A stretch of 64,000 bases of DNA, from the IMG/VR virus record IMGVR_UViG_3300020474_001461, positions 14,276-78,275 of that record; one strand, 5' to 3'. The notes under the pieces were generated by a model, which worked only from the letters and a program-made list of their open reading frames with translations, had not been told where the DNA came from and searched no databases. Made by a program: the position numbers and the translations under genes. This stretch comes from a virus. Shown piece after piece: positions 28,293 to 38,040 of the stretch (its first letter is position 1; every line of letters starts with the position of its first letter).

Positions 28293-28703
28293 TTACTTAG
28301 CCCACTTCTTTCTTTGGACTATCTGTGCTATAACCCCATAAACACTCATATCTTCGTATGTATCTTGAATATTCTCACCAACTTCATCAGGTTGACCTAA
28401 AACTACTAATTGTTTTAGTCTTTGGATTTTATCGTTCATTCTAAACCATAAACCTGTTAGTGATATTTTTATTTCATCATCAGTATCTAATTGAGAACCA
28501 ACTGAAATGTTATCAGGTCCGTAATTTCTTTGTTTTTTACAGAATGTCTCATACATTTCTTCTTGAATCTTTTTAAATTCAGCTGTAGTGTTTGGGTATA
28601 ATCTTTCACAATATTCTATTGCAGATTCTTCTACATTCCTTTTTTCCTCTCTTTCACCTGTCCACTCAACTTTATTTTTTCTTTCTTTTATTACTTCAGC
28701 CAT
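28293..28703 (-). CDS. nucleotide-modification-associated domain protein (DUF1599/Nmad1-like)
   Basis: KKQRNYG..NI, RMNDKIQRL, E..DTYEDMSVYGVI. Confidence 0.7.
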   Translation of the reverse strand: MAEVIKERKNKVEWTGEREEKRNVEESAIEYCERLYPNTTAEFKKIQEEMYETFCKKQRNYGPDNISVGSQLDTDDEIKISLTGLWFRMNDKIQRLKQLVVLGQPDEVGENIQDTYEDMSVYGVIAQIVQRKKWAK

Positions 28704-29128
28704 TTCTTTATTTCTTTATCTTCTATACCGTATTTTTTTATGATTTCGGTAATCTCATCTTTTGTTAGTATGTCAAGATATCCTATGATTTCTCTTTGAG
28801 ATACTTCATAGTATTTTGACAAGTAGTTTAAGACATTTTCATTGTACTTACCTTCTTTTTTACCTTTTATGTACTTATCCCATGTCTTTTTCTGTGGAAG
28901 AACGTCAAAATATAATTTGTACACATCTCGGGGTTTGAGTTGACCAATAGTATGTTTTTGTAACTCGTTTACCAACTCAATAAGATTAAGATTCATTGAC
29001 AACCATCTATTTACAATAAATGGTGAGAATGTTTTCTTATCCATATCAGATAGAGTATTCCATGGAACCTTTTTTTCTTTGATTCCCGAAATATGTTCAA
29101 ATATTGTTTTAGTCTTCTTTGTCACCAT
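28691..29128 (-). CDS. clamp loader small subunit (gp62-like)
   Basis: FSPFIVNRWLS...ELVNEL...LSKYYEVS; next to gp44-like gene. Confidence 0.7.
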   Translation of the reverse strand: MVTKKTKTIFEHISGIKEKKVPWNTLSDMDKKTFSPFIVNRWLSMNLNLIELVNELQKHTIGQLKPRDVYKLYFDVLPQKKTWDKYIKGKKEGKYNENVLNYLSKYYEVSQREIIGYLDILTKDEITEIIKKYGIEDKEIKKWLK

Positions 29129-29393
29129 TAATCAGTTCTTTTGGTGTAAATTTTGGATGAACTGTACCACAATTGTTACACAATACAACGGGTATCGGTA
29201 ACATTGATGCTACACCATTTGGTGATTGTACTGCTGGTACTTCTTTATACATTGTTACTTCGTCAAAGAAGATACCACCACATTCGGGACAATCTACAGT
29301 AGGTAACTTTCTTGGGTCTAATTTTAGACCTACCTGTTGTTGATTTGGTTGCCCACCTAAGTTTACAACTTTTCCTTTTCCTTTTTTTGCCAT
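29109..29393 (-). CDS. zinc-ribbon protein
   Basis: CPECG...CNNCG. Confidence 0.65.
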   Translation of the reverse strand: MAKKGKGKVVNLGGQPNQQQVGLKLDPRKLPTVDCPECGGIFFDEVTMYKEVPAVQSPNGVASMLPIPVVLCNNCGTVHPKFTPKELINGDKED

Positions 29394-29395
29394 AA

Positions 29396-35291: not shown

Positions 35292-35323
35292 CTAATATAC
35301 AAAATTTTTATTAATTTTCCAAA
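35292..35323 (-). promoter_or_regulatory. Bacteroidota-type -33/-7 promoter
   Basis: TTTG-N20-TATATTAG. Confidence 0.65.
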
Positions 35324-35868
35324 TACATTTCACCATTTTTTACACCTGATGGTATCGTATCCCACAGATTTATTGCTATGGCCCTTCTTGTTCCACGAGT
35401 AACTTTGGTAACTCTATGTTGGTGATGACCCGCAGGAAAGATAACTAATCTATTGTATTTGGGTTCTAATCTTTCAGGTTCACCATCTTGTCCATGTGAA
35501 TATATTTCAAGATAACCACCATCTATATCATTTTCCCATGGATAAAAAACTGTTCCTATTACGGGACTAACTATTCTTTTTTCAGTATCCCAAATATATT
35601 CATCTTTATCAAAATGAAACGGTAATTCATCTCTATCTTCATCTTGAGAATAAACACCTGTCCAATATTCAAACCCTGAAACACTTACAGGTGGATATGG
35701 AGAGTTTTTACCCCAAATATACTCTATCAATTCTTTTTTAAGTGTGTTTGATGGTGTATTCCACCACCCATTCCACCAATAGTAACCTTTATCGTCCCAA
35801 AAAGTATTGTCCTCTTTGAGTCTATTTAAAAGGTCTTGGTCTTTGATAAAATCATCAATTACTATCAT
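35311..35868 (-). CDS. 2OG-Fe(II) oxygenase (prolyl-hydroxylase-like)
   Basis: HFDKDE, GGYL, HRV, RRAIAIN. Confidence 0.8.
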   Translation of the reverse strand: MIVIDDFIKDQDLLNRLKEDNTFWDDKGYYWWNGWWNTPSNTLKKELIEYIWGKNSPYPPVSVSGFEYWTGVYSQDEDRDELPFHFDKDEYIWDTEKRIVSPVIGTVFYPWENDIDGGYLEIYSHGQDGEPERLEPKYNRLVIFPAGHHQHRVTKVTRGTRRAIAINLWDTIPSGVKNGEMYLEN

Positions 35869-36959
35869 AATAATATTTCTACTTTCTTTAATGCTGCTGC
35901 AATTACTTGGTGCATATCATAATACTTATATTCTGCTAATCTACCACCAAATATTACTTTGTCTTGTTGTTGTGACAGTTTTTTATACTTGTTATACTTT
36001 TCGTTGTTTACTTTATCATTCACAGGATAAAAAGGTTCTACACCTCTTTCATATGGTTGTGGATACTCCCAACTAACGTAAGTTCCCTCTTGATTTTGAT
36101 TATCAAAATACTTATGTTCTATGATTCTTGTATATGGTGTTTCTGAGTCCGTATAGTTCATAACTGCACATCCTTGATAGTTGTCCTTTGATTTGTACAT
36201 CTTATTCATCCAACTTACTGACTTATATTCTAAATCACCATATTTGTAATCATAGTATTTATCAATTGGTCCTGTATATATTACTTTTTCACCTAAACCT
36301 TCCCAAAAGTCTTTTTTATCAAAATAATCTGTTTCTGTAAATACTTCAATGTCTTCTAATAATCTTTCAAATATCTGAGTGTATCCACCGATTGGTATTC
36401 CTTGATATTTGTCATTAAAATAGTTGTTATTGTAACTAAACCTAACAGGTAATCTTTTGATAATTGATTTTGGTAACAACATACAAGGTTTCATCCACTG
36501 TTTTTCAGTATAACCTTTTATTAACTTTTCGTAAATATCTTTTCCAACAAGAGCCTGTGCTTGCTCTTCTAAATTAGTAGGATTACCTTCAAATTTTTGT
36601 GATTCAATCTTTTCTTTTGCGTCTTCAGGAGTTCTAACACCCCACATTTTATTGAATGTGTACATATTAAAAGGTAGTGGATATATTTCACCTTTATAGT
36701 TTGCTATTGGATTTAATTGAAACTGATTAAAGTCTACAAACTGATTTATCCAATGCCACACTTTTTCACTATTTGTATGAAATATATGTGGTCCATATTT
36801 GTGTACATGAATTTTATCCACCTCTTCTGTATAACAGTTACCACCAATGTGGTCTCTTTTTTCAATAACACAAACTTTTTTACCTGCCTCTTTCAGTTCA
36901 TATGCACAAACTGCTCCATAAAATCCTGAACCGACAATTAGATAATCGTATTTATACAT
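35865..36959 (-). CDS. glf: UDP-galactopyranose mutase
   Basis: IVGSGFYG, HIGGNCY, HKYGPHIFHT, YFND.YQGIP, GRLAEYKYYDM. Confidence 0.93.
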   Translation of the reverse strand: MYKYDYLIVGSGFYGAVCAYELKEAGKKVCVIEKRDHIGGNCYTEEVDKIHVHKYGPHIFHTNSEKVWHWINQFVDFNQFQLNPIANYKGEIYPLPFNMYTFNKMWGVRTPEDAKEKIESQKFEGNPTNLEEQAQALVGKDIYEKLIKGYTEKQWMKPCMLLPKSIIKRLPVRFSYNNNYFNDKYQGIPIGGYTQIFERLLEDIEVFTETDYFDKKDFWEGLGEKVIYTGPIDKYYDYKYGDLEYKSVSWMNKMYKSKDNYQGCAVMNYTDSETPYTRIIEHKYFDNQNQEGTYVSWEYPQPYERGVEPFYPVNDKVNNEKYNKYKKLSQQQDKVIFGGRLAEYKYYDMHQVIAAALKKVEILL

Positions 36960-38040
36960 TTCTTTTTGCAACTTCAAATAATTCTTTACATTTTGTTCCT
37001 GTATCAGGATATGATTGGTTATCTATAAAAAATGTACAATTAGGAAAAGGATTTTTATTTTTCATAATTTTAGTACAAACTTCCAACATTTGTTCCCAAA
37101 ACCCATTGTCTCTATAATAGTTTGCCAAATCAATTAAGTGTTCGTTTCTTCCTTGACAGTATTTTTCCGCCTCTTCCCACTTTTGTAATCCATCATATGG
37201 TTCACCTAAAAATGTATACAATCTACCTAATAATAGACACCCATAATATGCCATTTCATCCCAACGAGGATTTTTACCGTGAACTTTTTTTAGATACATT
37301 TCAAAATAAAATACTGCTCTTCTTGCATATTCATATGAATGTAGTTCACCAAATGGTAGTTCTTCTGTTTTCCAATAACCATCGTAATATGATTTTCCAA
37401 TATACCATAGATGATAGTCATCTTCTAATACTTTTTTAGTTGGTACATTTTCTAACTCAAGTGTCAGTGCGTCTGTAATAAACTTATTGTCTACAGTCCA
37501 AGTTTGTCCATCATTTGTTACGATATGTCTAAATGATTTCGGTAAAGGTACTCTAACAAAGTCTTCATCCACATCGGGTAGATGTATTGTTTCGTGTCTT
37601 TTAGAATGTTTGAAATACCACGGTCTGTTTGCGTTCCATAACCAAGTTCTGTAGTAGTAACTATCACCTGAGTCTACAGGGATGTTAAAAGAGTCGATAG
37701 AAGTATCGTTGAATATCGACCAATCAAAATCTTCATCTACTCTTAATTGTTCATCTGCGTCCATTCTAATAATCCAATCACATCCATGATTAGAACTTAG
37801 ACACTTTTGTAAAGTATGGTCTCTATTATAGCCAGGAAACTTCCATTCTGTTTCATAAAGAAATCCGTCAATACCCTTTTCTTCAAAAAAATCACGAATT
37901 ATTTGTTGAGTTCCATCAGTTGACCCATTATCTTGAATCACCCAATAGTCAATGTACTGATAACACGACTCTAACATTCTAAGAATAGTGTTAGATTCGT
38001 TTGCTACCATAGCATTCAAACAAATCTTTGTTTGTTTCAT
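36952..38040 (-). CDS. GT2 glycosyltransferase with C-terminal TPR-like region
   Basis: ICLNAMVANE, DNGSTDGT, MDADE, HE; WYIGKSY TPR-like helices. Confidence 0.8.
   Translation of the reverse strand: MKQTKICLNAMVANESNTILRMLESCYQYIDYWVIQDNGSTDGTQQIIRDFFEEKGIDGFLYETEWKFPGYNRDHTLQKCLSSNHGCDWIIRMDADEQLRVDEDFDWSIFNDTSIDSFNIPVDSGDSYYYRTWLWNANRPWYFKHSKRHETIHLPDVDEDFVRVPLPKSFRHIVTNDGQTWTVDNKFITDALTLELENVPTKKVLEDDYHLWYIGKSYYDGYWKTEELPFGELHSYEYARRAVFYFEMYLKKVHGKNPRWDEMAYYGCLLLGRLYTFLGEPYDGLQKWEEAEKYCQGRNEHLIDLANYYRDNGFWEQMLEVCTKIMKNKNPFPNCTFFIDNQSYPDTGTKCKELFEVAKRNV

Follow-up and report, generated by a model that had tools for sequence, protein, structure and literature searches.

Does a glycosyltransferase encoded within the replisome operon of an uncultured phage act on the DNA that this replisome makes? 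The question is raised by positions 28293-38040 of the window analyzed here, a 64-kb part of the 78-kb IMG/VR contig IMGVR_UViG_3300020474_001461 (G000; CheckV completeness 41%), in which an open reading frame (ORF) of 496 amino acids (aa) separates the sliding-clamp gene from the clamp-loader genes. All genes of the window are on the minus strand, and they include a T4-like replication set [family-B DNA polymerase (polB), gp45 clamp, gp44/gp62 loader, gp41 helicase, FEN/RNase H, UvsX, gp32, and ribonucleotide reductase]. A collinear IMG/VR contig of 180,769 bp (G001; 94% complete, 82-93% nucleotide identity) was used as a stand-in for the rest of the G000 genome. For the 496-aa protein, a glycosyltransferase (GT) of the GT-B type by predicted fold, a clamp-tethered, DNA-directed role is the best single hypothesis, to which we give a probability of roughly 0.4.

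This stretch was found in marine metagenomes of at least six studies, and a nucleotide search with positions 28293-38040 gave no match among GenBank phages. In Microcystis phage Mel-JY01, the nearest cultured phage by polB (48% identity), the clamp gene is followed directly by the loader with nothing between.

Position of the 496-aa gene in the replisome operon

The order of transcription is a GT2 glycosyltransferase, UDP-galactopyranose mutase (UGM), a 2-oxoglutarate (2OG)-Fe(II) oxygenase, a 72-aa ORF, polB, clamp, the 496-aa ORF, gp44, a zinc-ribbon protein, gp62, and a DUF1599-like gene. The first three genes are referred to below as the cassette. The replisome part of the operon is as follows.

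32554-35070, minus strand: family-B DNA polymerase, gp43-like (PF00136, PF03104)
31818-32564, minus strand: sliding clamp, gp45-like (phrog_223, DNA polymerase processivity factor, E 5e-12)
30318-31808, minus strand: 496-aa ORF (no Pfam or PHROG match; GT-B by AlphaFold2 model)
29396-30376, minus strand: clamp-loader large subunit, gp44-like (PF00004, PF13177, PF21328 Gp44_lid)
29109-29393, minus strand: small zinc-ribbon protein (PF13453, E 5e-4), whose position between gp44 and gp62 is kept in relatives
28691-29128, minus strand: clamp-loader small subunit, gp62-like (PF16790, E 2.6e-6; phrog_225, E 2.5e-18)
28293-28703, minus strand: DUF1599/Nmad1-like protein, last gene of the operon (PF07659, 24.0 bits, E 5e-5; phrog_1485, E 4.6e-13)
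28245-28271, minus strand: terminator-like hairpin and T run after the DUF1599 gene (consensus scan, 11-pair stem; pattern match only)

The 496-aa gene lies 9 nt from gp45 and overlaps gp44, and the genes before the hairpin abut or overlap. Among the operon genes there is no space for a promoter or terminator around the 496-aa gene; the only terminator-like hairpin follows the DUF1599 gene and is probably the end of the replisome operon. The original prediction, made from the sequence alone, had placed a 496-aa GT-B protein between clamp and loader as part of this operon, and both the coordinates and the fold (see below) confirmed it. Short contigs assembled from metatranscriptomes (four libraries, three studies) matched gp62, gp44, the 496-aa gene, and the clamp gene at 90-100% identity and crossed both junctions of the 496-aa gene; this evidence is weak because RNA libraries can hold DNA and contigs cannot show transcripts. 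No contig of the four libraries covered positions 32518-33817 in polB or the greater part of the cassette, which carries no weight.

Predicted fold and domains of the 496-aa protein

The AlphaFold2 model of the 496-aa protein, built from an alignment of 40 homologues, had a predicted local distance difference test score (pLDDT) of 88.8 and a predicted template modelling score (pTM) of 0.89. The following parts were distinguished.

30654-31781, minus strand: GT4-like GT-B glycosyltransferase domain, residues 10-385 (AlphaFold2, VIA, and Foldseek)
30384-30653, minus strand: winged-helix-like domain, residues 386-475 (separate AlphaFold2 model, pLDDT 82)
30321-30383, minus strand: tail ending in ...NKFF, a candidate sliding-clamp-binding motif, residues 476-496 (pLDDT <50 for the last seven residues, 490-496)

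In the model, two Rossmann-like domains face each other across an inter-domain cleft, as in GT-B enzymes. In structure comparison with VIA, the best match of the GT-B domain was sucrose-phosphate synthase 6kih_B (Z 22.0, root-mean-square deviation 3.6, 344 residues aligned), with Z values of 19-21 for BshA, MshA, HepE, PimA, and WaaG (21 for BshA, MshA, and HepE) and Z ≥ 8 in 856 of the 998 chains compared; the matches to GT4-type GT-B enzymes span Z 18-22. Foldseek gave E values down to 7.5e-12, and its matches included the glycosyltransferase 9iqz of phage HY126 (E 8.9e-10). Since both VIA and Foldseek match GT4-type GT-B enzymes, the claim that the 496-aa protein is, by predicted fold, a GT4-like GT-B glycosyltransferase holds.

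The whole-protein alignment (40 homologues, 39-81% identity) has 41 invariant columns, 37 of which fall within the GT-B domain, including the HRW motif at 230-232 and Q311-D312. The conserved polar residues are H230, R231, T258, D259, N307, Q311, and D312, which are candidates for a part in glycosyl transfer. The likeness to GT4 enzymes (sucrose-phosphate synthase, BshA, MshA, HepE, PimA, and WaaG) amounts to Z 19-22 over ca. 320-340 residues, with the HR motif located where GT4 enzymes have GRL..KG and a helix containing D/E at the site of EX7E. In contrast to these GT4 enzymes, to which it is 8-13% identical, the 496-aa protein has no PF00534 match and carries a winged-helix-like domain and a tail that they lack.

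The VIA matches listed for the C-terminal domain were mostly winged-helix proteins (RTP, PadR, MarR, ArsR, Z-alpha, forkhead, and Orc1; Z 5.8-7.2). The top Foldseek rows were of the same class but weak (E 0.04-0.5). Residues 386-496 are conserved family-wide, and the winged-helix-like domain is present in both classes of paralogues described below.

C-terminal tails of the 496-aa family and of polB

The tail of the 496-aa protein shows what is expected of a sliding-clamp client, namely a disordered C-terminus with conserved aromatic residues that resemble the tail of the cognate polymerase. The polymerase tail is located as follows.

32557-32586, minus strand: polB C-terminal tail ending in ...QFFGF, last ca. 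10 residues (tail sequence)

PolB aligns to the RB69 polymerase up to residue 886 of 903, and by this alignment its tail is positionally equivalent to that of RB69 gp43, which we take to be a clamp-binding peptide. The QFFGF-ending tail is probably how the DNA polymerase of this phage holds the sliding clamp.

An aromatic pair lies within the last four residues of 37 of the 39 distinct tails of the 496-aa family, while, as a background, such tails are found in 3 of the 105 ORFs of G000 and in 7 of the 206 ORFs of G001. The only ORFs with aromatic-pair tails in contigs G010 and G012 are polB and two 496-aa paralogues; G011 has one further such ORF. The tail of the 496-aa family matches the polB tail of its own phage, lineage by lineage. 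PolB and both paralogues end in S/A-W-F in G010 and G011, and this phage has KFF in the 496-aa protein and QFFGF in polB. At locus L061 the tail cores of the homologue and polB are nearly identical (KFSEFF and KFAEFF, respectively), and at L056 both proteins have NKFF. Shuffling the pairing of tails and polB gave p = 0.0007 for 23 pairs, a value that overstates the case because the pairs are not independent.

Three further ORFs of G001 with aromatic tails had no PHROG match, and no clamp client of the gp33/gp55 type was identified among them. Of the contigs that carry the 496-aa gene away from the replisome, five were searched for polB, and none of these fragments has it. As a separate observation, the polB frame of L071-L076 stops after ...ERFF, one codon before a further F that is kept elsewhere, so that the aromatic pair is retained despite variation in tail length.

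Distribution and neighborhood of the family

Among 5.8 billion proteins, 160 relatives of the 496-aa protein were found, all unnamed or "hypothetical" except for one labelled "glycosyltransferase" by JGI. Of 1.84 billion cluster representatives, only 316 were retrieved by the family profile; the closest clusters in the ESM Atlas are viral. Metagenomes are the source of the other members, several of which are from Tara ocean samples, and tblastn of the 496-aa protein against 50,697 GenBank phage records gave no match at E ≤ 1e-3. The family was found only in uncultured viruses, and both the family and its architecture are undescribed.

The 496-aa gene abuts polB, gp45, gp44, or gp62 in ca. 50 of the 77 IMG/VR loci fetched, with polB identities of 46-97%, and has no replication neighbor in ca. 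26 of the 77. It takes three positions: directly upstream of polB, between clamp and loader, and after gp62/DUF1599. Often two paralogues flank the replication module, also where polB is only 46-54% identical. In the comparison of relatives, which had been proposed as a check on the original prediction, the 496-aa gene and the cassette genes were distributed independently of each other. The 496-aa gene is accessory, an insertion or deletion (indel) between close relatives.

In many relatives, polB is directly preceded by a shorter GT-B gene (370-450 aa), whose product is 21-25% identical to the 496-aa protein and is without the winged helix and the aromatic tail.

Loci with the shorter GT-B gene upstream of polB: L138 (8883-10148), L141, L160, L170-L172, L184, L197, L200, L203, and L209

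Within the window, a more distant relative was recognized.

25129-26121, minus strand: 330-aa probable GT-B protein (no Pfam match), distant relative of the 496-aa family

This ORF had been pointed out as a second GT-B gene with an F-x-H-R-type motif. Its profile aligns to the C-terminal, donor-side domain of the GT-B part of the 496-aa family (hhalign probability 94%, E 1e-7) with the HR motif shared; the C-terminal domain of GT-B enzymes binds the nucleotide-sugar donor. The 330-aa protein is probably GT-B by motif and profile alignment. A Pfam-A hmmscan of the 496-aa and 330-aa proteins found no family at E ≤ 0.01, including PF11440 and PF09198, and PDB sequence searches with both proteins and their profiles found nothing significant. 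In JGI annotations, homologues of the 330-aa protein go under "glycosyltransferase involved in cell wall biosynthesis". Together with the following 90-aa ORF, its gene forms a 1.26-kb indel (25132-26396) that is absent from G001 and present in L002. In L055, L056, and L062, a 330-aa homologue lies directly upstream of a 496-aa homologue and polB. G001 has ca. 650 extra bases elsewhere, between polB and the clamp gene.

Proposed role at the sliding clamp

We propose that the tail of the 496-aa protein would bind the gp45-like clamp in the manner of the polymerase tail, that its winged helix would contact DNA, and that the GT-B domain would use a nucleotide-sugar to glycosylate phage DNA that has just been synthesized, possibly as a defense against restriction. 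Such a DNA-directed role is plausible because of the winged-helix-like domain, the polymerase-like tail, and the precedent of T4 alpha-glucosyltransferase (AGT) and gp45. T4 AGT co-purifies with gp45 and glucosylates DNA after replication, whereas T4 beta-glucosyltransferase (BGT) does not co-purify (PMC13216743, citing Sommer 2004; confirmed 2026). The 496-aa protein resembles AGT (GT72, PF11440) in being a GT-B-fold enzyme of a T4-like phage with a link to the clamp, seen here in the gene position between clamp and loader and in the polymerase-like tail. It differs in having no PF11440 or PF09198 match, in its extra winged-helix-like domain, and in coming from a lineage without the 5-hydroxymethylcytosine pathway (judged from the canonical ThyA of G001). 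T4 AGT is, we assume, not encoded inside the T4 43-45-44-62 cluster. By analogy, a clamp-linked phage DNA glycosyltransferase would be of a kind with one precedent, T4 AGT, which is unrelated in sequence.

The 496-aa family is virus-only, is embedded in replisome operons, and has the architecture expected of a clamp-riding enzyme. If DNA is modified in this way, ocean viromes would contain an undiscovered DNA modification, with consequences for the sequencing, cloning, and restriction resistance of such DNA. The polymerase-mimicking tail would then be the first sequence-defined clamp-binding motif on a phage DNA-modifying enzyme and a simple sequence rule for finding other clamp clients.

Search for an acceptor base

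To our knowledge, DNA glycosylation is known from a few cultured phages, in which the sugar is always carried by a hydroxylated pyrimidine that a ThyA homologue or TET has made. G001 has one ThyA homologue, located 4.3 kb past the end of the 78-kb contig. It has the motif QRSVD and keeps D169, N177, and L143, and it is therefore an ordinary thymidylate synthase. 5-Hydroxycytosine systems need a ThyA homologue with D169N (PMC13326640); by the criteria of that study, deoxycytidine monophosphate (dCMP) hydroxymethylase and 5-hydroxy-dCMP synthase were ruled out as the identity of G001 ThyA, in which D169 and N177 are kept. G001 also had no match to PF00145, PF01555, and PF02086 (C5, N4/N6, and D12 methylases), PF12851 (TET/JBP), PF01702 (DpdA), or PF06508 (QueC).

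Phage GT-B glycosyltransferases also belong to the 5-hydroxycytosine systems of RB69, DLP3, HY126, and RL38J1, and in Rhizobium phage RL38J1 a phage UGM is coupled with GT-B DNA glycosyltransferases on 5-hydroxycytosine (PMC13326640). Here, in contrast, ThyA keeps D169/N177 (G001), and UGM overlaps a GT2 gene and is not linked to the 496-aa gene.

With a canonical ThyA and the six DNA-modification families absent from G001, the search gave no pathway to an acceptor base, which is where the DNA-directed reading is weakest. That a clamp-riding glycosyltransferase of abundant marine phages modifies DNA during replication outside the known hydroxymethyl- and hydroxypyrimidine, methylase/TET, and deazaguanine routes, by new acceptor chemistry or on a new base, seems improbable to us.

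Avoided palindromes and the GpC-flank rule

GATC does not occur in G000 (299 expected) or G001 (694 expected), and CTAG is almost absent. The scarcity of these words argues against a blanket protection of the DNA. The avoided C-initial palindromes (CCWGG, CTAG, CCGG, or CATG, depending on the lineage) survive almost only with a preceding G or a following C, as counted below.

G000, CCWGG: flanked in 35/35 (p 8e-27)
G001, CCWGG: flanked in 93/95 (p 2e-62)
G001, CTAG: flanked in 16/16 (p 6e-12)
G001, CCGG: flanked in 13/13 (p 8e-10)
G010, CTAG: flanked in 44/44 (p 1e-33)
G011, CTAG: flanked in 21/21 (p 9e-15)
G004, CATG: flanked in 12/12 (p 2e-9)
G002, CTAG: flanked in 9/9 (p 4e-6)

Control words were at expectation in the flank test. 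Both flanks together never occur in G000 and G001, and they occur 0-4 times per site type across G001, G002, G004, G010, G011, G013, and G014. This GpC-flank rule is real and striking. GpC is depleted in the lineages that obey it (rho 0.52-0.74), and rho is 1.03 in Mel-JY01 and G003.

The rule does not follow the 496-aa gene. G013, a relative that is 97% complete and has an 86% identical polB, lacks the 496-aa family and obeys the rule (CTAG 31/34, CCGG 31/33). CTAG is missing altogether from G012, which has two 496-aa paralogues; G003 carries the gene without avoiding the sites, and the Mel-JY01 segment shows avoidance without flank rescue. Because G013 obeys the rule without the family, the 496-aa gene is not required for it, and the gene was rejected as its cause.

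A distinct rule was noted for GATC in other contigs. All 20 remaining GATC sites of G014 (L219-L227) are in one context, CWGGATC, and G009 (11/12) and G016 (5/5) keep GATC only as GGATC/GATCC. The GGATC context is perhaps a regulatory motif or the mark of a GGATC-specific methylase.

The UGM cassette and the sugar island

Upstream of polB and the 72-aa ORF, the cassette consists of three genes.

36952-38040, minus strand: GT2 (GT-A) glycosyltransferase (PF00535, E 9e-9, residues 14-100; phrog_13126, beta-1,4-glycosyltransferase family)
35865-36977, minus strand: UGM (PF03275, E 1.8e-73; phrog_9677, E 6e-137; FAD/NAD-binding N-terminus)
35311-35868, minus strand: 2OG-Fe(II) oxygenase, prolyl-4-hydroxylase (P4H)-like (PF13640, E 6e-11, 43.5 bits against a cut-off of 27; PF13661, E 2e-6)

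Pfam supports all three genes, which had been described as an oxygenase, UGM, and GT2 with tetratricopeptide repeats (TPR) upstream of the polymerase; the TPR part could not be verified, none being detected at E ≤ 0.01. UGM has a full-length GLF domain (247 bits over profile positions 1-203 of 203) and a PF13450 match of 84.6 bits. The oxygenase had no TET/JBP or AlkB Pfam match, and PF12851 is absent from G000-G003; with PF13640 above its cut-off, the earlier view that the enzyme is prolyl-hydroxylase-like rather than TET/JBP-like proved correct. The best PDB sequence match of the GT2 protein was GmaR (E 2.9e-5), which we take to be the Listeria flagellin O-GlcNAc transferase. The GT2 gene is missing in L002.

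The GT2 and UGM genes overlap by 26 nt, and the UGM and oxygenase genes by 4 nt. The GT2 that overlaps UGM is likely the user of UDP-galactofuranose; the galactofuranosyltransferases GlfT1 and GlfT2 are GT2 enzymes.

A cassette between the genes for thioredoxin and polB is confined to this lineage and close relatives of it (polB 76-97% identical), whether or not they carry the 496-aa gene. Among long contigs, UGM is found only in G000, G001, and G013, and G013 has the cassette without a 496-aa homologue. Conversely, G002-G004 and G009-G012 have a 496-aa homologue and no UGM or 2OG oxygenase gene on their contigs, six of these seven being 21-78% complete; only G010 among them has a match to the GT2 (GT2_362, 44% identity). 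In G000, G001, and G013, the cassette co-occurs with a Maf/CMP-sugar island and not with the 496-aa gene. The island and its genes are as follows.

9766-26121, minus strand: 16-kb sugar island (four GT2, two epimerases, UDP-glucose dehydrogenase, aldolase-CMP-sugar synthetase fusion, Maf/MptE-like protein, second P4H-like oxygenase)
15669-16379, minus strand: second P4H-like oxygenase, in the sugar island
19136-20833, same strand run: HMGL-type aldolase fused to a CMP-sugar cytidylyltransferase
14469-15290, same strand run: Maf/MptE-like protein
20885-24740, minus strand: three conserved glycosyltransferase genes, GT1/GT4 (23316-24740), GT1/GT4 (22036-23328), and GT2 (20885-21508) (PF00534, PF00535, phrog_2170)
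21518-22036, minus strand: unassigned ORF between the conserved glycosyltransferase genes

The aldolase-cytidylyltransferase fusion and the Maf/MptE-like protein hint at an activated ulosonic acid and at the glycosylation of proteins. In relatives, collagen-like ORFs of ca. 900-1000 GXY triplets, rich in GPQ, GPK, and GQK, are present in G001 (21899-24712 and 25521-28505; L081), and giant collagen-like ORFs with hundreds of GXY triplets also occur in G013, G014, and G019. These collagen-like proteins are candidate substrates of both prolyl-hydroxylase-like oxygenases (35311-35868 and 15669-16379). A point against such a substrate is that it is drawn from relatives only, with no collagen-like ORF on the 78-kb contig itself.

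From the co-occurrence with the sugar island, the P4H-like oxygenase, the UGM-GT2 overlap, and the collagen-like proteins, the simpler reading is that the cassette decorates proteins or glycans and not DNA, as a kit separate from the 496-aa gene. It would belong functionally with the 16-kb island: UGM would make UDP-galactofuranose for the adjacent GT-A transferase, and the prolyl-hydroxylase-like oxygenase would hydroxylate protein, for which the giant collagen-like fibre proteins of close relatives are the most plausible candidates. A comparison is offered by collagen hydroxylation and glycosylation in Mimivirus and PBCV-1. Mimivirus L230 and the chlorovirus prolyl-4-hydroxylase resemble the cassette in combining a P4H-type oxygenase with neighboring glycosyltransferases and long collagen-like proteins in the same genomes. 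Unlike in Mimivirus L230, where one enzyme is bifunctional, the putative functions are here on separate genes, and the donor implied is a furanose. The 496-aa gene is thereby set apart from a probable collagen-type hydroxylation and glycosylation kit, which corrects a tempting one-pathway reading.

The set of three conserved glycosyltransferase genes (GT1/GT4-GT1/GT4-GT2) is 87-94% identical in G001, has 39-70% identity in 9 of 11 more distant contigs including Mel-JY01, and is absent from G004 and G016. This set (L001, 25845-28763) lies after the PD-(D/E)XK nuclease gene that follows the replisome operon, and its conservation extends to more relatives than that of the 496-aa gene.

Alternative explanations

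Several further findings, besides the missing acceptor base and the avoided palindromes, weigh against the clamp-tethered, DNA-directed role. A lineage of the L063 type has the 496-aa gene beside UvdE, peptide deformylase, and baseplate genes. The gene is dispensable, since G013 goes from clamp directly to loader with no homologue anywhere by profile or tblastn. The Z of ca. 7 for the winged helix is in the range that the tool calls common. Comparison of the protein encoded at 30318-31808 with T4 AGT and BGT had been suggested: a GT-B fold was indeed obtained, and AGT and BGT were not among the 50 VIA matches listed, which were other GT4-type GT-B enzymes. The nearest structures listed are GT4 enzymes acting on small molecules and glycans.

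The alternative that survives best, although we regard it as doubtful, is that the 496-aa protein is an ordinary auxiliary glycan enzyme acting on the host envelope (O-antigen or capsule), on a small-molecule glycoside, or on a virion protein, its place in the operon reflecting early expression or an insertion hot spot. The best structural matches (sucrose-phosphate synthase, BshA, MshA, HepE, and PimA) are in line with this, as are the at least nine other sugar-pathway genes in the window, the indel behavior of the gene between close relatives, the lineage with the gene away from replication genes, and the lack of an acceptor-base pathway. Pelagimyophage glycosyltransferases have been read as genes for modification of host O-chains (PMC7029224). 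However, an auxiliary glycan role leaves unexplained the conserved winged-helix-like domain, the disordered tail that tracks the polymerase tail, and the repeated placement by polB, clamp, or loader at polB identities of 46-54%.

Recruitment of the glycosyltransferase to the replisome with an acceptor other than DNA (clamp, polymerase, gp32, a host factor, or a nucleotide), or a function mainly as a clamp-binding regulator, is unlikely in our estimation. Both the tail and the place in the operon suggest a link to the replisome in this case too, no modified-base pathway was detectable, and winged helices also make protein contacts (cullin and Rpc34 are among the VIA matches listed). On the other hand, we know of no precedent for glycosylation of phage replisome proteins, T4 AGT as the one known clamp-binding phage glycosyltransferase acts on DNA, and a purely structural role is hard to reconcile with how strongly the catalytic-type residues are conserved.

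The least probable alternative by far is the single pathway of the original prediction, in which a GpC cytosine would be oxidized by the 2OG oxygenase and then receive galactofuranose, supplied by UGM, through the 496-aa and 330-aa GT-B proteins: the GpC-flank rule is real and RL38J1 sets a precedent for UGM with GT-B enzymes on 5-hydroxycytosine (PMC13326640), but G013, without a 496-aa or 330-aa homologue, still obeys the rule, G010 and G011 obey it with no UGM or 2OG oxygenase homologue on their contigs (37% and 30% complete, respectively), the oxygenase is prolyl-hydroxylase-like, no cytosine methylase was found in G001, and ThyA has neither D169N nor N177D. GlfT1 and GlfT2, which transfer galactofuranose, are moreover of the GT2 type, like the product of the gene that overlaps UGM. 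Furanose on oxidized cytosine by one pathway is not supported, on these grounds and in view of the independent distribution of the genes; what stays plausible of the proposed sugar transfer to DNA is the role of the 496-aa protein, without UGM, oxygenase, and GT2.

Other genes of the operon

The Nmad1/DUF1599-like gene was expected after the loader. Its position and phrog_1485 match agree with this, while the PF07659 match (24.0 bits) is below the cut-off of 25 bits and covers only the C-terminal 39 residues. A DUF1599-like gene follows gp62 in most relatives, including those without a 496-aa homologue. A small ORF lies at the other end of the replication genes.

35074-35292, minus strand: small conserved ORF of 72 aa, directly upstream of polB (weak helix-turn-helix- or HNH-like PHROG matches, E 1e-4 to 9e-3)

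The position of this ORF upstream of polB is kept in relatives. In another lineage (L035), genes for a PfkB-family sugar/nucleoside kinase (13941-14726) and a ClpP protease (15413-16024) are inserted between the clamp-loader genes.

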